This document shows positions 2,310 through 63,101 of a stretch of DNA of 64,000 nucleotides, piece after piece. This DNA comes from Nitrospirota bacterium (GTDB lineage: Bacteria; Nitrospirota; UBA9217), in the NCBI GenBank assembly GCA_963663225.1, contig OY760142.1, positions 1,376,001 through 1,440,000 of the forward strand. The letters are read 5' to 3'. The first letter of the stretch is position 1. Each line of letters starts with the position of its first letter. A program made the position numbers and the translations under genes. Under the pieces are notes generated by a model. The model was not told the origin of the DNA and did not search any database. It saw nothing but the letters and a program-made list of their open reading frames with translations.

Positions 2310-4970
2310 TTAGCTGTTCAAAAAACACACAGCTTGACTATGTTGCGGGTCGGCAACTGTTTTGGCAAATACACCATTTGTCGCCCGGGGTACATCGATA
2401 AGGCGGAGAATGGATTCGTATTTCGCAGCATCCGGCAGTAAATCAAGGAGAGCATTCGGTGCGGTTTTAAAGAATTCCGCCTGAAATTCTGCGGCAGCAT
2501 CATCTGGATACAACGGTAAATATATGATCTGGGATTCCACCAGATCCTGAAAGAAATGTGTGCCATACGATACTTCAGGCACGTGGCCGGCTTCTTCAAG
2601 GGCTATCTCTACGAGTACGGCTGCGTTGTCAATATCAGCATAACTCACGTTGACGCCAAGACTGATATTACTGCTGCCCCACCGCCCAGGACCCATCATC
2701 ATGATTTTTTCATTCTTGACAAGAGGATGACGGTTGATCTTCCCCACCAAGCGACCCAGGGTCTTTTTCATCTCGTCAGAAGCGAGGTGGTTATATTGTT
2801 TCGGGTCGATATAGAGAATGTATCGGATTTTTTCGACGATGCCGCCGCAGATCATGCGTTGGGAGCGGAACAAAATCTGTTTACGTTCCAGGTTGTCCGG
2901 CAATAAGACATTTGCAGGTGATCCGGGCAGGAAAAGCGGCCGGCACTGAAGGAGGTTCACGTGGACACGGCCGTCTGAATCTATGGATGCAGTAAATTCG
3001 ACATCCACAGGGTGACCGTATGCTTTCTCGAGCTTCGTCAAAATCGTCCCCAGGAGCGGAACAAAATCAGTCTTGCTCAGCAATTTATTAAACGTAAGAA
3101 TCCATTGGTGCGGTTGCCCTTCCACATGCTGGAACAGGGAGTCATACGGGTAATTGTCCCGCATGACTGAAACAAGCAAGTGCAGATTGGGATATGAGTC
3201 ATCGGTCAGCACGTCCATCAGGTAGCGGGTTACAAACTGGTTGGTTTTCAGGTCGAGCACGTCCACCTGATGTTGTGAATATTTGGCTATTTTAAGGCCG
3301 ACTTCAGGCCGCAGTTGGGGGTTGCTGATGGCGATCATGCGGGGATAATCAGAGCTTACCCGGTCAACCGCTCGTGTCCCGAGTCCAAATACGAGCCGGA
3401 TGATGCCCTGGCGGGAGTCGATCCGGTCGTTCCATGCATACAGATTTCGCGAGAAAGCCACCCCGGACAGGGTAGGGAAAAAAAACTGCTGGTGGGGCGT
3501 GCCCGCGACGCGTTGTATCAGGATAGCCATTTGCTCGTCATTTTCGCCGAGCCCCCGTTTGCTGCGATAGGAGAGGGCGTCAGGGTTCAGAGCACTTGCA
3601 TAGACCAGTTTAACGGCGCGCATAAAATCCGCCAGGCGCGTGTCGGGATCACCCTGGTTGGTGCAAAAAACACTCAGATATTTTCCCGCAAAAGCGTTCC
3701 CGAAGCTGTCTTCCAGCAAGCTGCTGGAGCGTACGATGATCGGCGACTGCCCATAGTAATCAAGCATGTCGCGAAACTGATCCTGCATGTCCGCGGAGAA
3801 ACGACCTGCCAGGAAACGTTCCTCCACTTCGGCGAATTCCTCATGGGAAATGACAGTATCCCGCGTCAACTGCAGCCTGAGCCGGAAAAGATTATTGTCG
3901 ACGAGAAACGTGAAGAAGACATCTGAACCAAGGTAGAAGGAATCATGATCCTCCAGCCGTTCAGAGAGGTCTTCCCGTGCTTCGTCCTGGTCCGTCAGCA
4001 GGATGCGCCGTGCCAGCAACATCCCTGCTGCTTTACCTCCGATACGGCCTGCTCCCATAAGACGATTACGCATGGCAAGCAAATCCGCCAGGGTAAAATA
4101 CTTTTCCGCCAGCCGGTTGAAAGCAGGGTGGTGTCCAATGAGCATATGACACAATTCCTGCTTGAGAGCGATCTGCTCCGGGTCCGTTTCATCGAAGCCG
4201 GAAGTGGTCTGGCTGTAGTGCAGGAGTTTTAAATATACACTCTCCCAGGGGGCCAGCAATTGCGTTGTAGCACTCAAGGGCGACTGGCGAGCCGACGTCA
4301 ATACTTTTGCGGCATCCCGACTGTCAGAAAGGGGCGCCCAGGTATCATCGGACACAATATGGGGCAGAAACATCTGCGGTGAATAGCGGTCCCAAACCTT
4401 GATGGGATGGACATGCATGCTGCCCTTGGCGTGATACACATCCAGAAGGATTTGGGTTGTGTCCCGAATGCGAGCGATAGCGCGGTGGGAATGCTGGCCG
4501 CGCGTCAGGGCAAAATAGGCGATCGTGCGCAATTCGAACAAAAAGGGGCAGGTGACTTGAAAGAAATTAGCAACCAGTTCATCGGTTGCCCACTCCACAA
4601 GCAAAGCAGACAGGTTATCAAAAACGTAAAAAACCTGCGGACCGCGCATTTCAATGAGTCTTTGAACTTCCCGCGTAAACGCATCAAAGCCTAGGCTTGC
4701 GTTCAACTCAATGGTTTCCATGCCCGGACGGGGCGTCAGGACCGGGGGGTGGGATGCAAATCGCAGATATACCAGTTGGCGGTGTTCGCCGAGCGCGGTA
4801 TCGGCAAACGGTTCCGCGAAGTACCGGTAATCTTCAAGACTGTCAATCTGCCAGACAATATTATCACCCAGCCGGATGCCTTGCAGAATTTCATCCAAGG
4901 CCTTCAGGCCGCTCCGGACGGTTACCGGGTCCATGAATTTTTCACTCATTGCGGGATTACTCATTTCCAA
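2310..4970 (-). CDS. KaiC/RecA-like N-domain fused to PEP-synthase/PPDK-type nucleotide-binding domain (PEP/pyruvate-binding domain protein)
   Basis: IGGKAAG, IVRSSSLLEDSFGNAFAGKY, GLGTRAV, DVEF, LLQCRP; no phospho-His or pyruvate domain seen; start uncertain (4970/4964/4949). Confidence 0.8.
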   Translation of the reverse strand: MEMSNPAMSEKFMDPVTVRSGLKALDEILQGIRLGDNIVWQIDSLEDYRYFAEPFADTALGEHRQLVYLRFASHPPVLTPRPGMETIELNASLGFDAFTREVQRLIEMRGPQVFYVFDNLSALLVEWATDELVANFFQVTCPFLFELRTIAYFALTRGQHSHRAIARIRDTTQILLDVYHAKGSMHVHPIKVWDRYSPQMFLPHIVSDDTWAPLSDSRDAAKVLTSARQSPLSATTQLLAPWESVYLKLLHYSQTTSGFDETDPEQIALKQELCHMLIGHHPAFNRLAEKYFTLADLLAMRNRLMGAGRIGGKAAGMLLARRILLTDQDEAREDLSERLEDHDSFYLGSDVFFTFLVDNNLFRLRLQLTRDTVISHEEFAEVEERFLAGRFSADMQDQFRDMLDYYGQSPIIVRSSSLLEDSFGNAFAGKYLSVFCTNQGDPDTRLADFMRAVKLVYASALNPDALSYRSKRGLGENDEQMAILIQRVAGTPHQQFFFPTLSGVAFSRNLYAWNDRIDSRQGIIRLVFGLGTRAVDRVSSDYPRMIAISNPQLRPEVGLKIAKYSQHQVDVLDLKTNQFVTRYLMDVLTDDSYPNLHLLVSVMRDNYPYDSLFQHVEGQPHQWILTFNKLLSKTDFVPLLGTILTKLEKAYGHPVDVEFTASIDSDGRVHVNLLQCRPLFLPGSPANVLLPDNLERKQILFRSQRMICGGIVEKIRYILYIDPKQYNHLASDEMKKTLGRLVGKINRHPLVKNEKIMMMGPGRWGSSNISLGVNVSYADIDNAAVLVEIALEEAGHVPEVSYGTHFFQDLVESQIIYLPLYPDDAAAEFQAEFFKTAPNALLDLLPDAAKYESILRLIDVPRATNGVFAKTVADPQHSQAVCFLNS

Positions 4971-5121
4971 AATTTTTTTTGGTCAATATTGTACCATAGT
5001 ACAGCTCACCGTAAAATGCAAGGTGAAACGGAGGATATTTTGCTCTGAATTCAGATAAAATCATGATTTTTCCCAAGAAAGCAACTCTTCCGTACTGTGC
5101 CGAATTCGTCCGAGAATCTTC

Positions 5122-5150
5122 TTGACAGCGGTAAAAAAATGAGCAACAAT
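5122..5150 (+). promoter_or_regulatory. Putative sigma70 promoter of the HTH-cupin regulator
   Basis: TTGACA-17bp-AACAAT. Confidence 0.5.
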
Positions 5151-5163
5151 GCTCCTCGGCATC

Positions 5164-5211
5164 GGCAATCATTTGCCTACCAAAACCTATGACAAACGGC
5201 AATCATTTACC
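5164..5211. promoter_or_regulatory. Tandem palindromic operators GGCAATCATTTGCC (5164-5177) and GGCAATCATTTACC (5198-5211), candidate NrpR sites
   Basis: Same GGCAA-N4-TTGCC core as the operator upstream of glutamate synthase; located just downstream of the promoter. Confidence 0.55.
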
Positions 5212-6463
5212 GAAGAAAATATCCTCAGGATCGAGCAGCCTCGACTCCTTGATTAATGAATTCTCCATCGGCGACAATGTCGTCTGGGAGGTGGATGCCG
5301 GGACCTTGTCCGGCACTTTTATCCGGAGATTCATCTCGCAGTCGCTCAAAGATGCCCAGATGGTGATTTACGTCAGCTTCAACCGGTCTCCCCAGACCGT
5401 GTTGAACGAGCTCGGAAAAATTTCTTCATTCGAACACTTTACCCTGATCGACTGCTTCACATCGGGCAAAGGAAAGAACGACAATACATTCCTCAAATTC
5501 TATGAAAAGCCGTGCACCGGTGTCGTGCGAATTGAAGACCCGCGGGACATCAACCGGTTCACGGTGACGCTGAACGCCATCGAGGACAAACTCCCGCAGG
5601 GTGCACGGTACGTCTTTGACAGCCTTACTGGCATGCAGGATCTCTGGGGAGACGAGGATGAGACACACCGGTTTTTCACCTACATGTGCCCTCGGCTCTA
5701 CGATCTCGGCACGGTTGCATATTGGATGCTTGAAAAAGAAGCACACAGCCCCCGGTTCAAGGCAAACCTGCGGCATATTACGCAGGTTGCGTTTGATCTT
5801 TCGAAGCGAAAGAACAGCCTTTTCCTGAAAGCGCTGAAGCTTGAGGGCAGGGAAGACCGGGAAGCGTTTAAACCCCATCAATACGAGGTCAAGGATGATG
5901 TGGTGACGCTGACGGCTCCCCGCAAGGAGCCCACAACCGATATCGGCGGGAAGCTGAAAGAGGAGCGTCTCCGGATCGGAATGAACCAGAAGGAGCTTGC
6001 AGACAAGGTGGGGCTCACACCCAGCTTTGTATCGCAGCTTGAGAACGACCAGGTAAGCCCGTCGCTCAGCACCTACGTGCAGATCTGCAGGGCGCTCGGC
6101 ATTTCTCCCGGCCACTTCCTGAAAGGCGACACCGGCGAAGCTGCCAGCTGGCTGCTGAAAAAAGAAACAATTTTTTCCCGCATTCCCGCGCTTGATGGTC
6201 AGGTAAAAATATATCAGGCACTGGGCAGCAGAAAATATTCCGTGCGCATCGCCGTGCTTCCGCCCTACGCTGAAATACAAGGTCATTTTTTTCATCATGC
6301 AGAAGAAGAGTTGCTCTATGTTATGGAAGGCGCTCTTCTGGTAACGGTTGCCGGACGCCAGGAACGAATTGCACCGGGGGACATGCTTCATCTCAGGGAT
6401 TCATTTCCCACATATTGGAAAAACGAAGGGGGTGGTGAGGCGCGCGTGCTCGTTGTTTGGTAG
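5189..6463 (+). CDS. Transcriptional regulator: KaiC/RecA-like domain + XRE HTH + cupin
   Basis: GDNVVWEVD, YVFDSLT; LKEERLRIGMNQKELADKVGLTPSFVSQLEND HTH; EELLYVMEG cupin. Confidence 0.85.
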   Translation: MTNGNHLPKKISSGSSSLDSLINEFSIGDNVVWEVDAGTLSGTFIRRFISQSLKDAQMVIYVSFNRSPQTVLNELGKISSFEHFTLIDCFTSGKGKNDNTFLKFYEKPCTGVVRIEDPRDINRFTVTLNAIEDKLPQGARYVFDSLTGMQDLWGDEDETHRFFTYMCPRLYDLGTVAYWMLEKEAHSPRFKANLRHITQVAFDLSKRKNSLFLKALKLEGREDREAFKPHQYEVKDDVVTLTAPRKEPTTDIGGKLKEERLRIGMNQKELADKVGLTPSFVSQLENDQVSPSLSTYVQICRALGISPGHFLKGDTGEAASWLLKKETIFSRIPALDGQVKIYQALGSRKYSVRIAVLPPYAEIQGHFFHHAEEELLYVMEGALLVTVAGRQERIAPGDMLHLRDSFPTYWKNEGGGEARVLVVW

Positions 6464-26417: not shown

Positions 26418-26586
26418 CTCTTTCTTGTCAGAACAAACACCGTCCTTAACGATATTACTTTCCTGTATTATAATTATATCAGACCCTTCGGGTTGAGTTG
26501 TTTACAAAACAGACATTAAAACAGCAAACCCTGAAAGTATTTAAATACATGATAAAATAAAAAAGAGAAGCTGGAAAGGAGAAAAA

Positions 26587-27540
26587 ATGGAAACACGGAA
26601 ACTCGGCAACTCAGATATTGAAATCACCCGCCTCGGATTCGGGGCATGGGCAATCGGCGGATCAGGCTGGGAATATGGCTGGGGAGCGCAGAACGATGGC
26701 GAGTCGATTGCGGCAATTCACCGGGCTCTTGAAATGGGCGTGAACTGGATAGACACGGCGGCGGTGTACGGCCTGGGCCATTCCGAGGAGATAGTGGCGT
26801 GCGCCCTTGCCGGTTGGAAAAACAAGCAGCCGTATGTCTTCACCAAATGCGGGCTGCGCTGGAAGGAACAGGGGAAAGTGTATCAGTCGCTCAATGCCGG
26901 ATCAATACGCAGGGAATGCGAGGACAGTCTGCGACGGCTGCGGATTGACACGATTGATCTCTATCAAATCCACTGGCCGCCCGCAAACAATGGGCAGGAG
27001 CTAGAAGAGGGATGGACGACGCTGGCCGCTCTCCAACGCGAGGGAAAAGTCCGCTGGATCGGGGTCTCCAACTTCGATTCAGAACAGTTAAAGCGCGCGC
27101 AGGCCATCGCTCCGGTGACCTCGCTTCAGCCGCCGTATTCGCTTATCAAGCGAGGCGTCGAAGCCAAAACCCTGCCGTTCTGCTGTGAGCAGGGGATTGG
27201 CGTGATTGTTTACGCACCCATGGCATCCGGGCTGCTGACCGGCGCAATGACGCGCGAACGCGCCGCGAATCTGCCCGCTGATGACTGGAGAAAGCGGGAC
27301 CCTGAATTCAACGAACCAAAGCTGTCACGGAATCTTGTTCTGGTCGAAAAGCTCCGTGAAATAGGAAAACGACATGGGTGTTCAGCAGGTGAAGTCGCGA
27401 TCGCGTGGACGCTGAACAACCCGAACGTAACAGGAGCGATCGTCGGCGCCCGCAGCGCGGCGCAGGTGGAAGGAGTCATGCGAGCCTCGGAGATAACGCT
27501 CTCGAAAGAGGAAATCGCAGAGCTTGAATCCGCCTCTTGA
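26587..27540 (+). CDS. Aldo/keto reductase
   Basis: GFGAWAIGG, DTAAVYG, DLYQIHWP, IGVSNF. Confidence 0.92.
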   Translation: METRKLGNSDIEITRLGFGAWAIGGSGWEYGWGAQNDGESIAAIHRALEMGVNWIDTAAVYGLGHSEEIVACALAGWKNKQPYVFTKCGLRWKEQGKVYQSLNAGSIRRECEDSLRRLRIDTIDLYQIHWPPANNGQELEEGWTTLAALQREGKVRWIGVSNFDSEQLKRAQAIAPVTSLQPPYSLIKRGVEAKTLPFCCEQGIGVIVYAPMASGLLTGAMTRERAANLPADDWRKRDPEFNEPKLSRNLVLVEKLREIGKRHGCSAGEVAIAWTLNNPNVTGAIVGARSAAQVEGVMRASEITLSKEEIAELESAS

Positions 27541-27581
27541 TGATGAATAAGTGGATTCTTCAGAGCGGTTTAACTCTGTAG

Positions 27582-27612
27582 AAACTCCGGCTGTAAAGGC
27601 CGGAGTTTTTTT
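27582..27612 (+). terminator. Rho-independent terminator
   Basis: aaactccggc-tgtaaag-gccggagttttttt. Confidence 0.8.
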
Positions 27613-27789
27613 GTTGTTGAGAGAAAAATTTTGATGTGTTTTTCGAAATGTTCTTTCTTCCAGTTGAATGCAAAAAAATGCATTATCCTGTTGCGTATGG
27701 GTAATGTTTATTTCTTGCCATAAGAAGACGATTTGGTATACTCATACCTGATTTTTCTATTATGCCTTCGGCCCATTAAGGAGAGAAAA

Positions 27790-28833
27790 GTGAGAAAGAA
27801 ATCGCACGTGATAGCGGCAGTATCGGCGTTCTGTTTGATTGTTCTCGGCTGCGCTCCACCATCGGTAGTCATTAATCAACTTGTTCCCGGCAATGCACCC
27901 GAAGCGCCGAAACTCAGAAGAGTGGCGGTATTGCCGTTTGACGGTCCTCGCGGAAAGGAAGTGGCGGCTGAGCTGGAGGCGTCCCTGTCAAATATCACGA
28001 TAGACGGTAAACAGTATTTTGAATTTATTGACCGGATGTCGATAGACAAGGTGCTGAAAGAAATGAACCTTTCCATGACCGGCCTGGTTGACGCCACTAC
28101 TGCCGTTAAAGTAGGCAAAATGACCGGCGCGCAGGGAATTTACACAGGCGTAATAACCACCGCCCGCACGAGCGACAACACGTACAGGGAAAACCGGACC
28201 CGCTGCATACGCACCGTCACGAAATATGACAAAAACGGCAAGGCCTACGAAGTCTGCGGCGAGCAGGAGAGTTATTCGGTTCCCTGCATAAACAGGGAGG
28301 CGGTTTTTTCTTTCACGCCGAAGTTGATCAACGTGGAAACGGGCAGAATTGCGTACGCGAACAATCTCGACGGCAAGGCGCAGTCCGCAGCCTGCAGGGA
28401 TGCCGCGACGCCGCTCGTGGATGCCCAGCAGCTTGCAGACCAGGCGAAGAGGACTGCCCTGGAAAAAATAAGAAAGGACATTGCTCCCTACTATGTTCAA
28501 AAAAAAGTAAGGCTCATGGATTCGGATGAGGGGGCAACTGAACCTGCAGCAGAGAAACTCAAAAACGGACTGGATTATGCTGAGAACAACAGATTCGACA
28601 GGGCGTGCGAACTCTGGGGGGAAGCCCGGGTCATCTCCCCCAAGGCGCCTGCCGTTCTGTATAATCTTGGCGTGTGCCGGGAGTCCATGGGAAACTATGA
28701 GGAGGCTCTTGCATTCTATATGGAAGCCGACCGGCAGCTGGGCAAGCCCGACAAACGCATCACCGAAGCACTGAAGAACACGAAGTCTTCCATTGAGAAA
28801 CAGAAAAGGCTCAAGGAACAGATGGGGCGGTGA
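27790..28833 (+). CDS. Lipoprotein with CsgG-like domain and C-terminal TPR
   Basis: Lipobox VLGC, RVAVLPF, AVKVGKMTGA, TPR AVLYNLG; GTG start with aaggag RBS. Confidence 0.75.
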   Translation: MRKKSHVIAAVSAFCLIVLGCAPPSVVINQLVPGNAPEAPKLRRVAVLPFDGPRGKEVAAELEASLSNITIDGKQYFEFIDRMSIDKVLKEMNLSMTGLVDATTAVKVGKMTGAQGIYTGVITTARTSDNTYRENRTRCIRTVTKYDKNGKAYEVCGEQESYSVPCINREAVFSFTPKLINVETGRIAYANNLDGKAQSAACRDAATPLVDAQQLADQAKRTALEKIRKDIAPYYVQKKVRLMDSDEGATEPAAEKLKNGLDYAENNRFDRACELWGEARVISPKAPAVLYNLGVCRESMGNYEEALAFYMEADRQLGKPDKRITEALKNTKSSIEKQKRLKEQMGR

Positions 28834-28842
28834 CAAGGAGTA
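28788..28842 (+). repeat. 55-bp segment (3' end of TPR lipoprotein gene), repeated at 29696-29750 and 33306-33360
   Basis: aaacagaaaaggctcaagga(a/g)cag(a/g)tggg..ggt.a.aag.agt present in three copies. Confidence 0.9.
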
Positions 28843-28926
28843 CTTCCTAAATCATATAGGAATGGACTACCGAACTCATATACAAGTTACTACTTGTAGT
28901 ATTTTTCACAACTCGCAGGAAAAATT

Positions 28927-29565
28927 ATGTATATGAAAAAACTTTTAATTCTAATAAGCGCTTTATCTGTATTCTCGTCACTGGGTTGTACTGCAATTGG
29001 CTCAAGGGATTACTATGCCGCTTATACGGCAAAAGGAATGGTCCACTGGAAAGATAACAGGGGTATTATATACTCATCAAAAAAACCGGACTCGATAACA
29101 TATTCAAAGGATAATTTTAAGTTAACAATATATACAAACACTTTAGTAGATTCAACGTATGCACTTGGTCCATGCATGCTCATACCCTTACCTGTAATTC
29201 CAGTATTTGGACTTGGTAAAGCCATTTACAGTGGACCGATCAGCGTAAGCTTTGATGTCGAGCAAATCGGCCCTTATCAGTTAATTAAAGCGAATGTACT
29301 GAAAAATAATGAAAATTTTTTACCAATAAATATTGAAACACCTCTTTCTCGCTCTGCTTTTAACCCATTTACGGAAAAAATACAGTTTCCGCTAGATCTG
29401 AATGAGCGAGGGATTTATTTTTATTTAGAATACAACCTATCCGTAACGTCTGTTGACTCTTTTGAACTTGAATTTACAGTGCAGAACAATTCTGGCGTTG
29501 TATTTCTTGAAGATAAAATATCATTTACCCGAGAGAAAACAAATTACTTTATGTGCGTCATGTGA
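28927..29565 (+). CDS. Hypothetical lipoprotein (AT-rich cassette gene)
   Basis: Lipobox SLGC; RBS agga. Confidence 0.7.
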   Translation: MYMKKLLILISALSVFSSLGCTAIGSRDYYAAYTAKGMVHWKDNRGIIYSSKKPDSITYSKDNFKLTIYTNTLVDSTYALGPCMLIPLPVIPVFGLGKAIYSGPISVSFDVEQIGPYQLIKANVLKNNENFLPINIETPLSRSAFNPFTEKIQFPLDLNERGIYFYLEYNLSVTSVDSFELEFTVQNNSGVVFLEDKISFTREKTNYFMCVM

Positions 29566-29750
29566 AGTAGGTAGGCTGGGTAGAGTAGAGTGAAACCCGA
29601 CAGATTTGATTATGATATCGGTGCTCAGAATATGGGAATCATTAAGACATAAAAGAGTCGTTGGGTTTCACTTCGTTCTACCCAAACTACTAACTTTCCA
29701 TCGATAAACAGAAAAGGCTCAAGGAGCAGATGGGGCGGTGATAAGGAGTA
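29566..29750. repeat. REPIN-like element type A, copy 1 (inverted GTAG REP pair) plus gene-end tail
   Basis: gtaggctgggtagag..gaaacccgac ... gttgggtttcac..ttctacccaaactac. Confidence 0.85.
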
Positions 29751-29758
29751 ACCCTTTT

Positions 29759-30190
29759 ATGCCTGGTTCTAAAACACCTAATAAAGTAAAAAAAACAGAA
29801 AAGCCACGTGAAGACTCGGAATACTACCAACCATATTCCGAGTTCGCAAAAAATCTTCGGACGTGGCTTATTGCTTACGGGATAGGAGCGCCGGCATTAA
29901 TTCTATCCAGCAAGTCCGCATGGGATGCAGTGAAAAGCTCCGGTCACTTTGCCCTGATAGGAGTATTGTTTCTTTTGGGCGTGGCATTGCAGCTTATCGA
30001 AGCGTTGCTGTATAAGCATGCGATGTGGCATCTTTATTTCAGCGAGCTCGATGCAGAGCACAAAAAGTCGGGTTGGTACAAAGTCGCGGAATGGTTGTCA
30101 GAAGCGTATCTGCTTGAGTTATCGTTTGATATGATTTCAGTCCTTCTTTTTATTATTGCTACGCTGTTATTGTTCTTGAGTTTTCTCTAA
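29759..30190 (+). CDS. Hypothetical 3-TM membrane protein (cassette-like)
   Basis: ORF with hydrophobic segments; its RBS AAGGAG lies within the repeated tail. Confidence 0.7.
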   Translation: MPGSKTPNKVKKTEKPREDSEYYQPYSEFAKNLRTWLIAYGIGAPALILSSKSAWDAVKSSGHFALIGVLFLLGVALQLIEALLYKHAMWHLYFSELDAEHKKSGWYKVAEWLSEAYLLELSFDMISVLLFIIATLLLFLSFL

Positions 30191-30476
30191 TGCAGGATTG
30201 CTTCCTGTACTTCTTATTTTAATCAGCTACACCGGATTGTATGTTTCATCCCGAAACTGAAAATACTTCCTGAAAAGCTGTCTCAACATCGTTGACAGAG
30301 AACAATAAAAAGCCTATATTCGTAACATAATCTTGCATAAATTAATCAGAAGTCGATACCGCCTAACTATGCACACATTTTGCAGTGTTGAATAAACCTG
30401 TAGATATGCGCGTTAACATACGGAGTCTGCTCAATGACTGGTTGAACCATATAAATAAAATAGGGAGGTACTAAAG

Positions 30477-31352
30477 TTGAGATATTTCGTATCAATCATT
30501 TTACTCCTCAGCACAGTCGTGAGCCAGGCAGCGGACACTAATCCTCATCAGGCTTCATTTCACGATCGTGTTATTGCAGTCTATAGCTTCCTCCCGAGGA
30601 CCCTTGACAACCCAAGACTTGAAGCCAAATCCAAGGAACTGGATGCCTTCTGGGAAGAAGTCAAACGTCGTGGCCCTGTGGGACTTAGCGACCTTCGTAA
30701 AGAGCTTGCGAGAGATGACTTGCCGGTGTTCTTCAATTACGATGGCGCAAAACTACTCTTATCCTTATCGAAGTCACGTCAGGACCGTGTTTTGGCTCTC
30801 GCAGCAATAAGTAAGACTGAATTGCGCGATGTCCAGTGGGCCGATTACTTCTATACAGTGCATTCGCTGGCCATGGACGGATTGGACAGTTCGGAGGCCG
30901 CTTTAAAGATTCTGGGAGAGGACAAATACCAAGTCCTTGTTCCACAGCATGCCCTCACACTTAATCAAGAACTCTGTTTGCTTTATTTACTAATGCCCAC
31001 GGATGAGTCTTTCTACCTGGAAAAAGCTGAAAAACGTCTATTTGAAGAAAAGAGCATTACGGCCCAGAAGAGTCTTCTCGGTTTGCTAGGATATTCGGTA
31101 ACACTACGCGGTGACGCTGCGATAGCGCGTTTCGCATCAGACTCGAAGCAGCCTGATGAAGCGCGTACTTACGCAACTAAGATTATCTCGGCCACAAAGT
31201 CTATGGGTTGTGGGTCGATAGTAGGTCTTTCTTTCATCTCCTATACGTCTCTCAAAGAGGATCAGCGTAACCTTTTCGGCCGTGTGAGTGACGAAGCCTT
31301 GTATGATATTAGGCGCGTACAATTAAAGCTTCGCTGTAAAGGTGCTAAATAG
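30477..31352 (+). CDS. Hypothetical secreted alpha-helical protein
   Basis: Signal peptide (SQA-A); TTG start with gggagg RBS. Confidence 0.7.
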   Translation: MRYFVSIILLLSTVVSQAADTNPHQASFHDRVIAVYSFLPRTLDNPRLEAKSKELDAFWEEVKRRGPVGLSDLRKELARDDLPVFFNYDGAKLLLSLSKSRQDRVLALAAISKTELRDVQWADYFYTVHSLAMDGLDSSEAALKILGEDKYQVLVPQHALTLNQELCLLYLLMPTDESFYLEKAEKRLFEEKSITAQKSLLGLLGYSVTLRGDAAIARFASDSKQPDEARTYATKIISATKSMGCGSIVGLSFISYTSLKEDQRNLFGRVSDEALYDIRRVQLKLRCKGAK

Positions 31353-31374
31353 AATAAGGTCCAACAAAACAATC

Positions 31375-31560
31375 CAGTAGGTAGGTTGGGCTGAACGTTC
31401 TTTGTGAAGCCCAACGAATACATGATGCTGTGAACTCTTACATATAACCATGCGCTATCGAAGGGCAAATACACCCGGAGCAATATACTTTTCACAATGG
31501 TATCGGAAACGAATAAAAACCTGTTGGGCTTCAGAATATTCAGCCCAACCTACGTTACTT
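31375..31560. repeat. REPIN-like element type B, copy 1
   Basis: gtaggttgggctgaa...ttcagcccaacctac; 186 bp, 3 mismatches to copy 2 by manual comparison. Confidence 0.9.
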
Positions 31561-31629
31561 TTTCCTGTAAGTCGCAATCTGCAACGGATCGTCGAGATGC
31601 ACAGTACTACTGATATCGTGTAAAATGAT

Positions 31630-32112
31630 ATGGAAAAAAAAGAGGAAAAATCTGGCAGTTTTTATGTTGAGGTACAAGACAAAAGGAAAATATGTTTTCC
31701 TAGAAGATGCATAGTGTGTGGAAAAAATGTGGATAATTCTATGATTGAATTTCCAAGTAACCCCGTTGGTTTTTTTGGTGGCTTTATATGGCAACTAGGT
31801 TTAAGCAAAAAAATATCCATTCCAGCTCATAGGGCATGCGGTTTAAGATTGAAGAGGAACAATTTATTTAGAAATATATCATTGTTTTCTCTAGCCACAA
31901 TTACGTTAGTTATTGGTATTTATCTTGATTTAAGTCGATGGCAAGTATATGGGTTGCTACTCGTTCTTTTGATTCCACCCGTATATTGGCAGGAGAAAAA
32001 TACACCACCTTTTGAATTTAGGCTTGAAGATGAAATATATGAATTTCGATTTGCAGATAAAGAATATGCACAAGAGTTCGCCGATCTTAACGGAGTATCC
32101 ATAAAGAAATAG
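31630..32112 (+). CDS. Hypothetical membrane protein with CxxC and HxxC motifs
   Basis: FPRRCIVCG, PAHRAC, TM segments. Confidence 0.7.
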   Translation: MEKKEEKSGSFYVEVQDKRKICFPRRCIVCGKNVDNSMIEFPSNPVGFFGGFIWQLGLSKKISIPAHRACGLRLKRNNLFRNISLFSLATITLVIGIYLDLSRWQVYGLLLVLLIPPVYWQEKNTPPFEFRLEDEIYEFRFADKEYAQEFADLNGVSIKK

Positions 32113-32318
32113 ACGCATAACATTTCGTTTGATATGGTGTGCGAAAAAAACACTAGCGTGTCAGCCCGGTAGGTGGTCGAATTAATCAATAACATATGCA
32201 AAATGCAAATATTCATATAAAATAATCGTGCCGGAAACTTCCTGTAAATTGCAGCTGGACTCAAATAAGCTAAATAGCAGATTATAATCCAAATTCATTA
32301 ACGATCTATAACTCAAGA

Positions 32319-32504
32319 CAGTAGGTAGGTTGGGCTGAACGTTCTTTGTGAAGCCCAACGAATACATGATGCTGTGAACTCTTACACATAACCATGCGCT
32401 ATCGAAGGGCAAATACACCCGGAGCAATATACTTTTCACAATGGTATCGGAAACGAATAAAAACCTGTTGAGCTTCACAATATTCAGCCCAACCTACGTT
32501 ACTT
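32319..32504. repeat. REPIN-like element type B, copy 2
   Basis: Near-identical direct repeat of 31375-31560. Confidence 0.9.
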
Positions 32505-32676
32505 GAGTTTTCTCTGATGTGATACTTCTTCCTGAAAGTTGTTATCGTTGCATTTCATTGAAACATATAATATTTCAAGCTAATATTTGATAGAATCTAA
32601 ACTAAAAATACCGAATCCGAACCGAATCCTATGGCGTTCATAGACATTTATTTAGCGCAGGCATATATTTTGCCAG

Positions 32677-33117
32677 ATGAGGTTTGGACCAAATAATGAT
32701 TCCTGCATATTGACGATGACTAAAAAGATATTTATCGATAAAGGCGGATACATTCAAGAACGTGTAGAGAATGACAACTCCAGACTTGTTCCATTCCCGG
32801 TTTGCCTTGCCATTAAGTACGGGGATAGTGTGTCTGCAGAGTGTCCCGACTTCATTCTAAGTACCGACGAATCGTGGGTATTCGTGAACACAGATATACC
32901 CCTGTCCGAAGGAACGCGAGTTCTGATTCATTTTTATGTTCCACCGGAAATTAAATTGCTAGCTGAAATACCAGGCACGGTATCGACTCCGAATTTGGAT
33001 AATTCAGCATATCCAAAAGGAGTTCTGGTAAAATTTAGCGCTGTTTCTCGCAAGACGATCAAACTCCTAGAAGGTTATATTGAAGGGAAAAAGCTTTTAA
33101 TCGATAAAAAAGCATAG
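32677..33117 (+). CDS. PilZ-like domain protein
   Basis: VFVNTDIPLSEGT.V.IHF..P...G.V....KGVLVKF. Confidence 0.6.
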   Translation: MRFGPNNDSCILTMTKKIFIDKGGYIQERVENDNSRLVPFPVCLAIKYGDSVSAECPDFILSTDESWVFVNTDIPLSEGTRVLIHFYVPPEIKLLAEIPGTVSTPNLDNSAYPKGVLVKFSAVSRKTIKLLEGYIEGKKLLIDKKA

Positions 33118-33177
33118 CGACAATTTCTTCCTGTAGAAGTGATTTTTTAAATCCTAAGAAGAGTGAGTAGTACAACC

Positions 33178-33360
33178 AGTCGGTAGGTCGGGTAGAGCAG
33201 AACGAAACCCGACAGTTTTGATTATGGTATCGGCGCAGAATATGAAAACTAACAAGACATAAAAAAGACGTTGGGTTTCACGTTGTTCTACCCAAACTAC
33301 TAACTTTCTCTCGAGAAACAGAAAAGGCTCAAGGAGCAGGTGGGACGGTAATAAGAAGTG
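33178..33360. repeat. REPIN-like element type A, copy 2, plus gene-end tail
   Basis: Diverged direct repeat of 29566-29750. Confidence 0.85.
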
Positions 33361-33479
33361 TTTCCTCGCGATCAACGAGTCGCTGCACAGTTCAATTAGT
33401 TCTGCGTTGAGATGAACCCGCAGAATGAAGTTAGAAAAAAAGATTAAGAATAAAACGATTCCATCTTTTTTCTTGACAT

Positions 33480-33526
33480 CTACTACATATTGAGTTTAAA
33501 TTAAGCCACTATACAATATAGTGTAT
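33480..33526 (+). promoter_or_regulatory. Tandem NrdR boxes overlapping sigma70 promoter (TTGACA 33473-33478)
   Basis: ctactacatattgagt (33480-33495) and atacaatatagtgtat (33511-33526) fit acaCwAtATaTwGtgt; 31-bp spacing. Confidence 0.8.
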
Positions 33527-33559
33527 TATTGCTTCTAGATTCTAGCTACAATCTCAGCT

Positions 33560-33775
33560 AAAAAGGAGGTGATATTCCTTTAGAACTGAACTGTTGAAAT
33601 GAAATGCTGTACAGCTGAACCGATTGGATGTTAGGGAAGAAGAGTGTAATTCTCTCGCTGCCCCGCAGCCGTAAAGGGAACGAAAGCCCAACCAGACGCC
33701 ACTGTCACGGGTCATACCGTGATGGGAAGGCGGGTGAGTAGGATGCCCTGAGCCGGAAGACCTGTCCTAGTCGGA
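33560..33775 (+). ncRNA. Cobalamin riboswitch
   Basis: AGGGAA..GAGTGtAAtTCtc.CTGCCCC..GCCGT, GCCACTG, GGGAAGG and B12 box GAGCCGGAAGACCTG; 5' boundary approximate. Confidence 0.9.
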
Positions 33776-33813
33776 ACCCAACTTAAATCGTGATTTTTCC
33801 CGAGGGAGGAAAG

Positions 33814-34062: not shown

Positions 34063-36222
34063 ATGAAAACATATGCTTATGGATTACCCCGGCTTGGTCA
34101 GCACAGAGAGTATAAAAAAGCAATCGAGGCTCTGTGGAAAGGTACAATCAATGAAAAAAAGACCATTAGTATTTTATCCGAAATTCAAAACGACAATATA
34201 GCATTGTATAAGAAAAATGTAGATATGTTCCCTGACGGGGAAATGACTTTTTATGATCCCATGCTTGATACGGCTATAATGTGCGGCGTCTATGACCCTC
34301 AGAGTTTACCTGAATATTATGGGCTCTGTCGCGGACAGAATGCCCTGGAAATGACAAAATGGTTCAACACAAACTACCATTATCTGGTTCCAGATTTCAG
34401 CAATATAAAAACACCGTCGTTTAAGTCAAACAGCAAAAATCCCATTCTCCAATTCAAACAAAGTCAATTTCCACATTTGATAGGGCCTTTTACGTTTCTC
34501 AAACTGGCCAGAGGGCTTGATAAAAAGAATTTCCGAATTTTTTTCATGGAGCTGATAAAGGTATATGAAGAAATTCTCTTTGATTATGAAAAGGTTCAGA
34601 TTGATGAGCCAGCCTTCGTCATGGATGTTGAGCGATACGAAGTCGATTTGCTTAACGAAGGGTACCAACTGCTGGAGGCGTCCGAATGCAAAATAACGCT
34701 TATGACCTATTACGATTCCGTGGATTTTATGGAGGACCTGCTGTCTCTTCCTGTTTCTGCAATAGGCATTGACTTCGTGCGAGGTGGGGCAAGCTATGAA
34801 TACATCATGCAGAACGGTTTTCCGGGAGACAAAACCCTCATTGCAGGGCTGGTGAATGGACGCAATATTTGAAAAAATGATATCAGCACTACGGTTGCAA
34901 GGTTAAAAAGACTTGCCGGTAAAGCATCGAATCTTATGATTTCTAACGCAGCACCACTGTACCATTTGCCGGTTTCCATTTTTTATGAAAACAAGCTTGA
35001 TGAAAATTTAAAAAAATGCCTCTCTTTTGCCGTGGAGAAACTGGAAGAAATCCGGCTGGCAGGTGAATGTTATGAAGGAAAAGAAATCCCTCACAAGGCG
35101 GCATGGGGAAATTTCGGCAGCGATGAAGAGGTCCGTAAGCGAGTGACTTCGCTGGGTGAAGATGATTTTATAAAAAAGACTAAGCTTGAAGCAAGAAGAA
35201 AGCTGCACGAGAGCATATTGCAATTGCCGGTATTTCCGACGACGACCATCGGCAGCTATCCGCAAACCGCCGAAATCCGCGATAAAAGAGCCGCCTACCG
35301 TGCAGGAAAGTCAACAACAGGGGAATATAAAAAATATATTCAAGGTGAAATCGATAGCGTAATACGATTTCAAGAAGATTTAGGGCTGGATGTCCTGGTG
35401 CATGGAGAGTTCGAGCGAACTGACATGGTCGAGTTTTTTGCCGAAAGACTTTTCGGCATCGCCACGACGCAAAGCGGATGGGTGTTATCATACGGAACCA
35501 GAGCATACCGGCCTCCCATTATTTACGGTGATATCAGCAGACCAGGCCCCATGACGCTTGACGAAGTTACCCATGCGCAATCAAGAACAAAAAAGCCGGT
35601 TAAAGGAATGTTGACTGGAGCGGTCACTATCATCGCCTGGAGCTATTGTCGGGAAGATATTCCTATGTCGGATGTGGCTTATCAGATTTCCCTGGCGCTC
35701 AGAGATGAAATACTTGATTATGAAAAAGCAGGTATAAAAATTGTTCAAGTTGATGAAGCCGCTTTCCGGGAAAAAGCCCCGATAAAGAAGCGCGACTGGG
35801 GCCAGTATTTTAATTGGGCGGTAAAATCATTTAACCTGGCAACGAATACAAATCCGAAAACTCAAATACATACACACATGTGTTACTCGGATTTCAGCGA
35901 GATTCTCCCTTATATCAATCAAATGGATTGTGATGTCATTTCCATTGAGGCAGCCAGAAGCAATGGAAACATTATTTCATCGTTTGAAGGAATAAACTTC
36001 AAGCGTCAGATCGGGATCGGGGTATGGGATATCCATTCGTCAGCTGTTCCTTCTGTCGAGAAAATGATTACTGTTGTCAGGAGATCCTTGCTTAATATTC
36101 CGAAAAACAATTTTTGGCTGAATCCCGACTGTGGGTTAAAAACGCGGGAGTGGCCGGAAACGAAGGAGGCATTACGCAATCTTATGGAAGCATCCAGACG
36201 ATTGCGATCAACTTATTCATAG
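34063..36222 (+). pseudogene. metE: Cobalamin-independent methionine synthase interrupted by in-frame TGA at 34870-34872
   Basis: EMTKWFNTNYHY, GRNI*K, PTTTIGSYPQT, HGEFERTDMV, HTHMC, NPDCGLKTR; both halves in the same frame. Confidence 0.85.
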
Positions 36223-39596: not shown

Positions 39597-39933
39597 CGAA
39601 CGAGAATCTTAATTGTGATATCATAGCATGCAAATCCTTAGATTAAAGCTAGGCGCTGCGGGCAGATTGCCGCAATTCTCTATCTTAGTTGTAGCGTTTC
39701 AAATGAAGATTTCGCATCTCTTTGCTGTATCCTGGTTGCCGGAGTCAGTATACAAAAGTACCATTCGCTGCTGTTTCTGCGCACGTGTTTCTTCCTGCCG
39801 TTGACTCCTGCAGCCGTCACTGCTACCATTGTAAAGAGAGACGAAAGCGGGAAAACACGGTTGCCTGATGATCAGGGCAATGGGAGACAGCGCCATGCAT
39901 GAGTTGATGAAACACCGTGAAAATAAACGAACC

Positions 39934-41181: not shown

Positions 41182-41370
41182 ACAGATCATCAGTCTGCGC
41201 TGAATATTGCAGGTGGATTCTATAAGCTGCGGACATATGAGCAGACTTATTTTTAATATGCCAACATTAATTATGTATAGGTTGCAGTCAATTGTTTATT
41301 TGGCTATAATATCGGTGCTCAAAATATGGGAATCGGGCGTTTTCAAAATAAAAAAGTGTAAGGAGGCGAA

Positions 41371-41817
41371 ATGAAATACTTTTGTTATGTACTTATGGTA
41401 GCGATGTGTTTTTTAGGAGCCTGTGCTGCGAGTGTACATCAAGATCAGGCTGCAATGCCTGATGCAGGACATTTTGACGGGACTTGGGATGTTACGTATG
41501 TCTGCGATGGAGAACGGGGAGGCGACAAATACACAATGCGTTTCAAAGCTTATGTAAAGAATAGCGTTTTCCACGGAAAGTATGAGAGTAAAAGCAATAC
41601 CGGGGCTTTCCTTATACTCGACGGAAAAATTAAGGCTGATGGCAGCGCGCTCCTCAGAGCGGACGGAGACATCGGTCGCGACAGAAAATATGCTGCTGGA
41701 AGCTATCAACGCAACACTGCCTATAATTACAATATAGATGCAACCTTTACAGCCTCCCAAGGCACTGGCAAGCGGCTCTCGGGTCGTAATTGCGATTTAA
41801 CCGCGGTCAAGCAGTAG
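41371..41817 (+). CDS. Hypothetical lipoprotein
   Basis: LGAC lipobox; RBS aaggagg. Confidence 0.7.
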   Translation: MKYFCYVLMVAMCFLGACAASVHQDQAAMPDAGHFDGTWDVTYVCDGERGGDKYTMRFKAYVKNSVFHGKYESKSNTGAFLILDGKIKADGSALLRADGDIGRDRKYAAGSYQRNTAYNYNIDATFTASQGTGKRLSGRNCDLTAVKQ

Positions 41818-61056: not shown

Positions 61057-61153
61057 CGAATGCTTGACAGCTGGTTCATGAACGTCAGAGTTCTCAACTT
61101 CAACGGTTGCTGTGCGAGACGAATTTTCTGAGCTCGGATATGAGGAAATTACC

Positions 61154-61894
61154 ATGAAACGATTCAAATGGCAGATTACGCTTGGTGTGTTGTTGATTGT
61201 TATGGCGGCCGCTATCTATGGGTTACAGATATTGATTTTTCACAACGCGCATGAAACCTTTTTTCTTATTTTCCAGGATCTCGCTTTTATGCCGGTCCAT
61301 TTTCTGATTATTACCCTTATCGTCGACCAGTTACTGAACGTGCGTGAAAAACGCGCCATGATGAACAAAATGAACATGGCGATCGGCGTGTTCTTCAGTG
61401 AAGTGGGTACGTATCTTCTGAAATCGATTTCCGGTTTTGATCAGAACATTGAAAAGATAAGAAATGACCTTCTGGTCACTCCCGAATGGACGGACCAGCG
61501 GTTTTCCACTACCATAAACAATCTCCACCAGTATAATTATCATATCAACTATGCAAAGAATGAAATGGTGTCGCTCAAGGACTTTTTGAGTGCAAAACGT
61601 GATTTTTTGCTGCGGGTCCTGGAAAATCCGAACCTCCTCGAACACGAAACGTTTACCGAACTGTTGTGGGCGGTTTTTCATTTAAGCGAGGAACTGGCTG
61701 TTCGACAAGACCTTTTGAACCTGCCGGAGGAAGATGAAAACCACCTTGCCGGAGACGTACGGCGTGCCTATATTGGCCTTATCACACAATGGCTTGCCTA
61801 CATGAGGCACCTGAAAAAAGAATACCCCTATCTTTTCTCACTCGCTTTGAGAATGAACCCGTTTGACCCGAACGCTTCCGTTACAGTAAAATAG
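61154..61894 (+). CDS. Conserved hypothetical membrane protein
   Basis: 2 TM; IGVFFSEVG, LENPNLLEHE, YPYLFSLA.R.NPF. Confidence 0.75.
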   Translation: MKRFKWQITLGVLLIVMAAAIYGLQILIFHNAHETFFLIFQDLAFMPVHFLIITLIVDQLLNVREKRAMMNKMNMAIGVFFSEVGTYLLKSISGFDQNIEKIRNDLLVTPEWTDQRFSTTINNLHQYNYHINYAKNEMVSLKDFLSAKRDFLLRVLENPNLLEHETFTELLWAVFHLSEELAVRQDLLNLPEEDENHLAGDVRRAYIGLITQWLAYMRHLKKEYPYLFSLALRMNPFDPNASVTVK

Positions 61895-61953
61895 TTACTG
61901 CATCCGTCGCGGGAACAGCCTGTCCAAAGCATTATCCTCAGGAGGAGAATATA

Positions 61954-63075
61954 GTGCAGAGCACAGAAAAGCTGGATTTCAAGGGAAGCGGCGTTTTGTT
62001 GCTTAAGCACAGCATGCTGTATGTGCTTATGACTACGCCGGTCCTGTCCTTTTGCCTCATGGGCACGCACTGGCCCCGTATTTTTTTTGCTATGATTGCG
62101 TTCTCCTTCCCGGTTGTTCTGCTCCTCGTTTTGCTTATCTCGCGGTACGACCGGATTTCGTTTGATGATGATAAGCAGCAAATCGTCAAGCCTATAGGAC
62201 GTCCTCTCCCCTATCAAAGCATAAAAAGAATTGATATTAATGAAACAGGCAGACTGGTGCAGGTTGGCATTCGGCAGGGCTTCTTTCGCAGGGCACAATT
62301 ACTGTATGCGATGGACGGTATCGAGAAATCCCGCTTGCTGGAAAATCTTCTTAAGAGATTTCCTGATCCAGTTATTATCAGAAAAAATCGCAATGTTAAC
62401 TGGAAGTCGGTCTTCCTGATTCTTCTATTGTTTATCGTTCTGACCGCAGGATTTCATCTTTATCTTTTAAGAATCAACAAGGAAATCCCTGTGCTGCCGC
62501 ACCAGATAGTATGGGAAACAACAAAACGGTCACCGAAGGGCTTGCAGCAGTATACTCTGGGAAATTTCAGTTTTATGATGCCGGCACGATTTCAACTGAT
62601 TGGAAAAGAAGAGGGGGCCCTGCAGTTTGAAGATAAAATTACAAAAAATGAGGTAAGATTTTTTATAAACCCGCGGAAAGACATCCCCAGGCATGTGGAA
62701 CGGTTTATACGGTATATAACCGGGATTCGCGATTATTATGACGTGCTGGATATGGCGTTCTTTACGCGAGTAGGAGTTGTCCCGCTTGTCTTGAAAGATA
62801 TCGCTCTGACGGGATTGGCAGGGGTGAAAATTAGTGCCCTTGAACTGGCGCCGCCGCCTCGAATTGATTCGGTCGAAAAGATAAAAGAACCGGCAGGGCA
62901 ATCACTGAAAGGCTTTTTAACACAAGGGAAACGAAAGGACAAAAATACCGCCTCTGTTTTACTGGTGAGCAATGACCGGGAGGAGCTTCATGTCTTTTTT
63001 GCTGGTTTTGAGCAACTGGATGAAAAGACAGTGCAGAAGGTCATATCCGGGATCCGTCCTATTTCAGCCCGTTAA
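61954..63075 (+). CDS. Hypothetical membrane protein
   Basis: Long ORF, GTG start with ggaggag RBS, 3 TM. Confidence 0.65.
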   Translation: MQSTEKLDFKGSGVLLLKHSMLYVLMTTPVLSFCLMGTHWPRIFFAMIAFSFPVVLLLVLLISRYDRISFDDDKQQIVKPIGRPLPYQSIKRIDINETGRLVQVGIRQGFFRRAQLLYAMDGIEKSRLLENLLKRFPDPVIIRKNRNVNWKSVFLILLLFIVLTAGFHLYLLRINKEIPVLPHQIVWETTKRSPKGLQQYTLGNFSFMMPARFQLIGKEEGALQFEDKITKNEVRFFINPRKDIPRHVERFIRYITGIRDYYDVLDMAFFTRVGVVPLVLKDIALTGLAGVKISALELAPPPRIDSVEKIKEPAGQSLKGFLTQGKRKDKNTASVLLVSNDREELHVFFAGFEQLDEKTVQKVISGIRPISAR

Positions 63076-63101
63076 GTCTCTTGTTCACACGTCTCCAGCG
63101 G

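Follow-up and report, generated by a model that had tools for sequence, protein, structure and literature searches.

Orphaned REP doublets and long flank duplications in a variable gene islet of a Nitrospirota genome

In this work we analyzed a 64,000-nucleotide stretch (the window) of a Nitrospirota bacterium of the lineage UBA9217 (GCA_963663225.1, contig OY760142.1, positions 1,376,001–1,440,000) that contains an array of five open reading frames (ORFs) separated by repetitive extragenic palindromic (REP) elements. The region is a small, low-GC, strain-variable islet located behind a conserved lipoprotein gene and containing four orphaned REP doublets, named here A1, B1, B2 and A2 in their order along the window (Table 1). 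The array is neither an integron nor a working gene-capture system based on REPINs (REP doublets forming hairpins). This genome has lost the REP/transposase system from which the A and B elements are left over, and these are decaying. What stays of interest is the nature of B, a putative relic of a gene for a REP-associated tyrosine transposase (RAYT), and the association of REP doublets with long duplications in their flanks.

The source genome (G000) is a single 3.26-Mb contig with a completeness of 99%. Genomes of relatives are referred to as G002, G004, G005, G010, G013, G016 and G050, their contigs by C numbers following a colon, and extracted loci by L numbers (L055, L061 etc.). Coordinates are those of the window unless a genome position is mentioned.

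REP doublets and remains of a RAYT gene

A first-pass annotation of the window, made from the sequence alone, had described four REPIN-like elements in A-B-B-A order with heads of the form AGT(A/C)G-GTAGG, and all four were found where it had placed them. The heads read AGTAGGTAGG in A1, B1 and B2 and AGTCGGTAGG in A2. As it had described, the B elements are nearly identical (98.4% identity over 186 nt, with 3 differences in 186 positions, E = 5e-89) and flank one gene, ORF160, while the A pair is more diverged (84.2% identity over 133 nt, E = 2e-35). Among the repeats, that of the B pair is the youngest, which goes part of the way towards the annotation's further claim that the gene between the B elements is the most recent arrival.

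Each doublet consists of two inverted units with their heads outward, and each unit is composed of GTAGG followed by a short imperfect palindrome. The B unit has the structure AGTAG-GTAGG-TTGGGC...GCCCAAC (GTAGGTTGGGC..GCCCAAC) and the A unit GTAGG-YYGGGT...ACCCGAC. The arms are 31–42 nt long and are separated by a spacer of 107 nt in B and 58 nt in A. Folding as single-stranded DNA predicted long hairpins, with z values of −4.1 for A1 and −5.8 for B1, and none of 200 shuffled sequences folded equally well. Both A and B have the anatomy of REPINs and represent GTAG-type REP doublets of two related families.

In total, 11 A and B elements were found in the genome, and four of them lie within 4.5 kb; the search for further copies proposed in the first-pass annotation thus revealed clustered rather than scattered elements. 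G000 has 10 occurrences of the unit GTAGGTTGGGC, and 40 relatives have between 0 and 15 of them. The combination of a cognate RAYT and a sizeable dispersed population, as in REPINs, was not found in G000. The A-arm pattern was present in five records among genome contigs, too few for statistics. One A-type REP unit each, with 40 nt identical to an A arm of the G004 type, was noticed in L078 and L079, whose records are titled as Poribacteria metagenome-assembled genomes.

Two further places in the genome may be connected with these elements. Near genome position 1825383 (minus strand), a spacer homologous to the sequence to the right of B1 reads AGTAGCGTACT, where B1 has AGTAG, the doublet and CGTTACT; this could be an empty site or the footprint of REP-doublet excision. 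In the window, the centre of an A element (37 nt at 89% identity, with weaker similarity beyond) is found at 41240–41360 without clear REP arms, in front of a lipoprotein-like ORF (41371–41817) and in a region conserved in G004. This is probably the remainder of an old A element that has decayed.

The two REP types were found next to RAYT genes in relatives. In G010:C1, B-type units lie on both sides of a 195-aa ORF with a score of 192 bits on NF047646, the NCBIfam model for RAYTs (cut-off 80); in G010:C2 they surround a RAYT-like ORF that was not scored, and the right REP in G010 is overlapped by a RAYT 3′ end. A B-type unit is located on one side of a RAYT gene (91.9 bits on NF047646) in G016:C3, an A-type REP lies beside a RAYT-like ORF with 69.5 bits, below the cut-off of 80, in G013:C150, and G005 contains a RAYT homologue with one stop. 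Since the REP types flank RAYT genes in relatives, the A and B elements belong to the kind served by RAYTs, in accordance with the first-pass assignment. It should be noted that the G013:C150 locus (L068) has, at 3556–5862, a REP doublet, a toxin-antitoxin-like pair, a second REP doublet, a second such pair, an A-type REP and the RAYT-like ORF. This is the nearest to a complete REPIN-cassette arrangement that we saw; it is known from one contig, and the toxin-antitoxin label was judged from the ORFs.

No RAYT was found in G000 by a search with PF01797, and NF047646 gave no match at E ≤ 1. When four RAYT-like proteins of relatives were compared with G000 by tblastn, only fragments in B4 and in B1/B2 were detected. 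The B4 remnant corresponds to the 50 C-terminal RAYT residues (50% identity over 50 aa, E = 2e-8). The remnant in B1, with its counterpart at 32394–32435 in B2, corresponds to the first 14 RAYT codons; its tblastn match of 71% over 14 aa is weak when taken alone (E = 2.3). By eye, the centre of B1 can be aligned with the RAYT locus of G005 both at its start and at its 3′ end (GGAAACGAGTAG...CCTGTTGGGC), and blastn of B1 against this locus gave no match. Both ends of a RAYT gene, its first codons and its 3′ terminus, appear to survive in the centres of B1 and B2, so that B is read as REP-ΔRAYT-REP, an internal-deletion relic of a REP-RAYT-REP unit. One common deletion was found in B1, B2 and B3, which are 96–98% identical, so that the deleted form has multiplied. 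For the centre of A, a similar origin was considered on the basis of TGATTATG / ATAAAAGAG and is not claimed, as the resemblance is to the start of the G005 RAYT only.

The accessible part of one study (bioRxiv 10.1101/2021.07.10.451892) describes the decay of REPINs after RAYT loss and proposes that REPINs originated from the ends of an IS200-like element. A putative internal-deletion relic of a REP-RAYT-REP unit that has multiplied, as offered by this lineage, fits that proposed origin. In searches of the literature on REPIN/RAYT duplications and REP-flanked horizontal transfer we saw neither RAYT remains inside REP doublets nor flank repeats of the kind reported below; supplementary files may hold cases.

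Target duplications at the hotspot and at other loci

Comparison of three genomes of the genus (G000, G004 and G002) revealed that the site is a true hotspot of variable gene content. Around it, the DNA of G004 is 93–95% identical to that of G000, and the G004 orthologue of the 366-aa lipoprotein is 95% identical. In G004, ORF143 follows the 366-aa gene directly, and ORF212, A1 and one copy of a 55-nt direct repeat are absent; compared with G004, these three together behave as a single insertion. The homology with G004 ends at position 30220 and is restored at 39708, and the 1.7 kb found in between in G004 contain two other lipoprotein ORFs. The breaks with G002 are located at 30207 and 39716; G002 has there 2.3 kb with three further ORFs, and its ORF143 3′ end is on contig C215, whose start cuts the ORF. 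The gene sets behind ORF143 are thus different in all three genomes. A gene-capture hotspot with REPINs as cassette boundaries had been proposed in the first-pass annotation: the hotspot is borne out, but REPINs are not a general cassette boundary, since the alleles of G004 and G002 contain no A, B or C element (repeat C is described below).

The limits of the array, 28788 and 33360, coincide with the outer copies of the 55-nt repeat (DR1–DR3): the array starts with the first base of DR1 and finishes with the last base of DR3. The final 46 nt of the 366-aa gene, with the stop codon, and 9 nt beyond, with AAGGAG, make up this repeat. Both DR2 and DR3 begin right behind the ...TAACT end of an A element, and A plus DR forms a 185-nt unit present in two copies with 85% identity. 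The better match to G004 is found in DR1 for the 5′ part of the repeat and in DR2 for the 3′ part, as expected from a crossover inside the repeat. A second, weaker repeat, that of the ORF143 3′ end, has an exact seed of 14 nt (E = 0.004), which is located at the breakpoint with G004 and G002. For both repeats the REP doublet sits directly inside the right-hand copy. The boundaries of the inserts are asymmetric: the target is directly repeated on either side of an insert, and a REP doublet is present on one side only. The insertions of this islet are bounded by target duplications, one copy of which has a REP doublet at its inner edge. The 55-nt repeat was also considered as a part of the A consensus; this was rejected because five other A copies end with ...CCTACnARCT and have unrelated flanks. 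The flank of A3 partly resembles the 55-nt repeat.

Short-read contigs of the source sample match the window without any difference at 26500–30246, 30234–31404, 31497–32348 and 32441–33685, and they break only within repeats B and C. As all unique junctions are covered unchanged, the array is not an assembly artefact, a possibility that the first-pass annotation had left room for. A joint 31561→32320 in the contig data was examined as a possible excision form; one of its sides is a 30-nt stretch inside the B repeat, and it was treated as a mapping effect. In the digester metagenome X1, whose contigs can show presence only, no contig covered 29005–29505 or 30508–33012.

Similar structures were revealed at other loci. 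At 1.817 Mb, A3 belongs to a 1.27-kb insert, composed of a promoter-like site, an ORF for a CsgG-like lipoprotein and then A3, that lies between two 388-nt copies of the 3′ ends of a cheY-like and a permease gene; at this site G004 has one copy of the 388-nt segment and no insert. B6 (2.067 Mb) is a 94-nt cargo-free doublet between two 65-nt copies with 88% identity, and G004 contains a single 65-nt copy and no B6. The third case was found in G004 itself. G000 has at 2.106 Mb a second unit of the B-ORF-B type, B5-ORF196-B3, and the orthologous islet of G004 (L055) contains an A element and ORF204 between two copies of ~200 nt that are 82% alike. As the left G004 copy is 96% identical to the single copy of G000, one of the two copies looks imported.

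The frequency of such repeats was estimated by a flank-repeat test, in which a repeat of at least 25 nt had to span the element with one copy no more than 45 nt from it. Flank repeats were found at 4 of the 11 elements of G000 (A1, A2, A3 and B6) and at 9 of 400 random sites used as a control; the number of elements is low, and A1 and A2 do not count as independent cases. In three junction families, those of A1/A2, B2 and B6, the ...ACT of the doublet is immediately followed by the repeat. The native sites corresponding to the repeat starts are preceded by TC/CT in the 366-aa gene (GTCTTCCAT), by CT in ORF143 (GTTCTTGAG) and by CA at the B6 locus (TTCATATG).

How the islet may have grown

We favor the reading that the islet grew by stacked insertion-duplications, marked by the duplicated gene ends and joined at the ...ACT of the doublet, and that the elements are now inert; our judgement for and against it is evenly balanced. 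The likeliest mechanism would be Campbell-type integration of circles, which we propose with a confidence at or somewhat under such a balance. Circular DNAs would have carried a segment homologous to the target, the cargo and a REP doublet, and many of them probably came from other strains as alternative alleles of this hotspot. They would have entered by recombination within the homologous segment, so that incoming alleles were stacked and did not replace one another. The sole novel junction of such a circle would be that between the end of the REP doublet and the start of the homologous segment, at the terminal ...ACT. A RAYT, in the donor or in an ancestor, may have closed the circle, and the A and B elements of today would be inert passengers.

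TnpAREP cuts at CT or CA, according to the accessible part of PMC8266576. Together with the start of the repeats after ...ACT and the position of the native sites after CT or CA, this hints that a RAYT closed the circles, with A3 as a misfit, and a past role of RAYT in making the junctions appears possible. A bolder version, which we think doubtful, is that RAYT cutting at ...ACT and at a more distant CT/CA pseudo-site produces a circle bearing the flanking genes together with a part of the adjacent conserved gene, and that homologous recombination in this part brings the circle into other chromosomes, i.e., that REP doublets "transduce" their neighbours. If so, REPINs would drive the stacking of alleles at hotspots, and the filled and empty sites with their flank repeats of 33–388 nt would be the first footprints bearing on REP spread, a process that, in the accessible part of the TnpAREP paper (PMC8266576), remains to be elucidated.

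Several observations weigh against the stacking of circles. Neither a circle nor a recombinase or a donor allele was seen, and two scans of metagenome contigs gave no match: the locus scan with the 366-aa protein found none, and the A-centre DNA pattern had 0 matches. In the flank-repeat test, 7 of the 11 elements had no flank repeat: A4, A5, B1, B3, B4 and B5 have none, and the repeat of B2 is short and weak (33 nt, 79%). The doublets of relatives have a flank repeat at 1 of 10 distinct loci; a further one at L069 (G013:C145), with another REP type on both sides, was dropped from this tally. The identical junctions of A1-DR2 and A2-DR3 may represent one event copied rather than two integrations. 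Finally, the A3 repeat begins 28 nt beyond the doublet, its native site is not preceded by CT or CA, and both 388-nt copies differ from G004 by ~2.5%, with all five differences in the first ~130 nt in common.

The equal divergence of the A3 copies from G004 fits in-place duplication as well as import, and thereby allows the main rival, hairpin-provoked replication errors. According to this explanation, which we regard as unlikely, forks stall at the hairpin, the nascent strand switches template and returns upstream, and an insertion with a duplication is formed in place. Strong predicted hairpins, the wide range of repeat lengths (33–388 nt), which is expected of microhomology events, and the cargo-free B6 with a repeat on both sides agree with it. 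On the other hand, the genome contains no other copy of the cargo (ORF212, ORF304) that could have served as a template, the L055 copies are hard to derive by duplication in place, and the same A/DR junction was found twice.

The elements without flank repeats bring in another explanation, namely that this is an ordinary flexible region shaped by horizontal transfer and homologous replacement, in which doublets accumulate or survive in dispensable DNA and the adjacency of repeats has no meaning. It would account for the G004 and G002 alleles, which vary without A, B or C, for A5, which is a plain 212-nt insertion, and for B4 with ORF287, which is a plain 1.59-kb difference; the decay of REPINs after RAYT loss is also in line with it, as far as described in bioRxiv 10.1101/2021.07.10.451892. 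Nevertheless, we find it improbable, since 4 of 11 against 9 of 400 is unlike chance, the repeat starts at the last bases of the doublet in three junction families, and two B-ORF-B units exist, though the genome has only about six B elements.

The first-pass annotation had suggested an integron-like array, in which REPINs would act as analogues of attC sites and a RAYT or an integrase would move single-gene cassettes. B1-ORF160-B2 and B5-ORF196-B3 indeed resemble cassettes between doublets, the G013:C150 locus has two toxin-antitoxin-like pairs between REP doublets next to a RAYT-like ORF below the cut-off, and all ORFs of the array are co-oriented. But this complete genome contains no RAYT, and the best score on the integron integrase model TIGR02249 was 89.5 bits against a cut-off of 265, with no IntI in the window. 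As noted in the annotation, the window has no integrase or transposase: none was found by Pfam among 50 of its 53 ORFs of at least 110 aa (the other three lie at 61112–63986), and genome-wide searches for tyrosine recombinases and Y1 transposases gave no match within it. The elements are few and decayed (84% for the A pair), and hotspot alleles without REP doublets exist. The attC layout (R″ RYYYAAC ... R′ GTTRRRY, with the stem between the boxes) was not found in A or B, as judged by eye rather than with an attC covariance model: boxes GCCCAAC...GTTGGGC are present in B, but the paired arms are outside and not between them, and the stretch between is unpaired next to the boxes. Finally, target repeats at the inserts are not made by an attC × attI or an HUH reaction. 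The absence of RAYT and of an integron integrase above the cut-off, the asymmetric boundaries and the doublet-free alleles exclude a present-day REPIN-based capture machine. The integron-like model is largely refuted for this genome, and we consider it highly improbable.

Content of the islet and comparison with known systems

The five genes between DR1 and DR3 are co-oriented, AT-rich and unrelated, as originally described: the windowed GC content is 0.34–0.48 across them compared with 0.52–0.58 upstream, and blastp found no pair among them matching at E ≤ 0.01. Pfam, NCBIfam and PADLOC assigned none of them to a family, the lone match being that of ORF146 (Table 1). Homologues of ORF212 are present in 3 of 64 genomes of the family, counting G000. 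ORF291 has 389 homologues, and a Pfam domain was found in none of the 120 listed. A search of 5.8 billion clustered proteins with ORF160 returned itself as the sole match, and it may be a candidate gene only. The only good homologue of ORF212 (38% identity) is a lone low-GC gene in L061 (G050:C101, about 2150–2200). The hairpin 3′ of this gene shares GTCGTTCGAGTCC.GCGC with an attC-like site at 254.9 kb of the genome, and hence the ORF212 family may also move as an integron-type cassette.

Table 1. Features of the islet and its surroundings (window coordinates). The predictions for ORF212, ORF143 and ORF291 were judged from the sequence.
Feature	Position	Strand	Description
366-aa lipoprotein gene	27733–28833	+	Conserved; CsgG/LpoB-like N-terminal part and TPR by Pfam
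DR1	28788–28842	+	Native copy of the 55-nt direct repeat
ORF212	28927–29565	+	Predicted lipoprotein (MKKLL...GC start)
A1	29566–29701	+	A-type REP doublet, GTAG heads outward
DR2	29696–29750	+	55-nt copy, 93%; runs on into ORF143, as in G004
ORF143	29759–30190	+	Predicted small membrane-like protein
Second repeat, left copy	30175–30207	+	Weaker repeat; ORF143 3′ end and GATTGCTTCCTG
Repeat C	30196–30444	+	249 nt; TTGACA-17-TATATT promoter-like site, two CTTCCTGWA motifs
ORF291	30477–31352	+	Predicted signal-peptide protein, large unnamed family
B1	31375–31560	+	B-type REP doublet with putative remains of a RAYT gene in its centre
Putative RAYT-start remnant in B1	31450–31491	+	MRYRRANTPGAIYF vs MRYRRSNIPGATLF of the G010 RAYT
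ORF160	31630–32112	+	Single ORF between B1 and B2
B2	32319–32504	+	B-type REP doublet
Second repeat, right copy	32502–32534	+	79%; begins inside the ...GTTACT end of B2
ORF146	32677–33117	+	Weak 20-bit match to TIGR02266, below cut-off
A2	33178–33311	+	A-type REP doublet
DR3	33306–33360	+	55-nt copy, 82–85%; junction to A as in DR2
Rest of the variable segment	33361–39707	+	Cobalamin riboswitch (33609–33783), metE in two ORFs, nrdD, DUF3568 lipoprotein gene, nrdG

The variable segment continues to the right of the array with the riboswitch-metE-nrdD-nrdG block, which is absent from the hotspot in G004 and G002; G004 has a copy, 72–82% identical, beside the orthologue of position 2.45 Mb of G000. 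Behind the riboswitch, metE (34063–36222) is split into two ORFs, one of 269 aa containing Meth_synt_1 and the other of 428 aa containing Meth_synt_2. The cobalamin riboswitch alone reached the Rfam gathering score in the window, and there was no Rfam match over 28700–33500 even at E ≤ 0.1.

The gap between ORF143 and ORF291 contains repeat C instead of a REP doublet. It is 94–95% identical to genome positions 3116563–3116813 and 1756041–1756289, and all three copies begin with TTGCTTCCTGTACT; a 91% copy was noticed in a G004 islet. From its sequence, repeat C looks like a portable promoter or leader in front of secreted-protein ORFs. The motif YTTCCTGWA was revealed at 28843, 30201, 30266, 31562, 32238, 32528 and 33127, in the orientation of the ORFs and in most gaps of the islet. 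Exact matches to CTTCCTGWA number 7 in the window, with 0.86 expected, and five of them are on the plus strand in 30201–33135; the motif is also present at the left break with G004 and G002. YTTCCTGWA recurs between the ORFs of islets at 3.116–3.119 Mb and 1.824–1.826 Mb. CTTCCTGWA was rejected as a general cassette-boundary site on two grounds, its genome-wide count of 153 with 145 for TTCCTGTA and its absence from the inter-ORF gaps of both the G004 and the G002 allele. A sigma-54 or ECF (extracytoplasmic function) promoter was rejected too, as the spacing does not fit when compared by eye with consensus sequences.

Tandem accretion at the 3′ end of a gene is known for arrays of integrative and conjugative elements (ICEs) and cis-mobilizable elements (CIMEs), and for prophages that rebuild the 3′ end of their target gene. 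The islet is similar to these in that two tandem inserts are delimited by three direct repeats of a gene 3′ end, with the gene itself left intact. As at att sites, target repeats bound the insert and an empty site is present in a relative in the cases of ORF212 with A1, the A3 insert and B6. In contrast to ICE and CIME arrays, the inserts have no integrase in or near them, the window contains no recombinase, and there is no single conserved att core: the repeat is different at each locus (55, ~40, 65, 388 and ~200 nt), so no single att site was used.

The islet also shares features with integron arrays and with CALINs (clusters of attC sites without an integrase), since it is composed of co-oriented small ORFans, each followed by a palindromic element, with no integrase nearby. 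It differs from them in having no attC box order, no intI above the cut-off, target repeats of 33–388 nt and alleles free of elements. In the sharing of one deletion by B1, B2 and B3, the B family is reminiscent of miniature inverted-repeat transposable elements, i.e., internal-deletion derivatives of an autonomous element; here, however, no short target-site duplication of fixed length was found, and the parent would be a RAYT, which is described as non-jumping.

REPs and REPINs rank among the commonest bacterial repeats, and among known systems they resemble the A and B elements in the GTAG head with an imperfect palindrome, as described in the accessible parts of Bertels and Rainey 2011 (PMC3116915), Di Nocera et al. 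2013 (PMC3733652) and Corneloup et al. 2021 (PMC8266576), and in the location of the same REP types beside RAYT genes of relatives. Like the "HH dimer" of GTAG REPs (PMC3116915 and PMC3733652, accessible parts), the doublets have two inverted units with heads outward, here with a 58–107-nt spacer and a long hairpin. REPINs are spread through extragenic space, whereas the elements of this genome are only 11 in number and are clustered in low-GC islets; moreover, the genome has no RAYT, putative RAYT coding remains are present in B, and about a third of the elements abut long flank repeats. The lineage thus offers pairs of filled and empty sites between close relatives together with a recurrent link between REP doublets and long flank duplications. 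A mechanistic link would mean that REPINs contribute to the building of variable gene islets; without one, the region would be no more than a flexible islet of the ordinary kind that contains fossil repeats.

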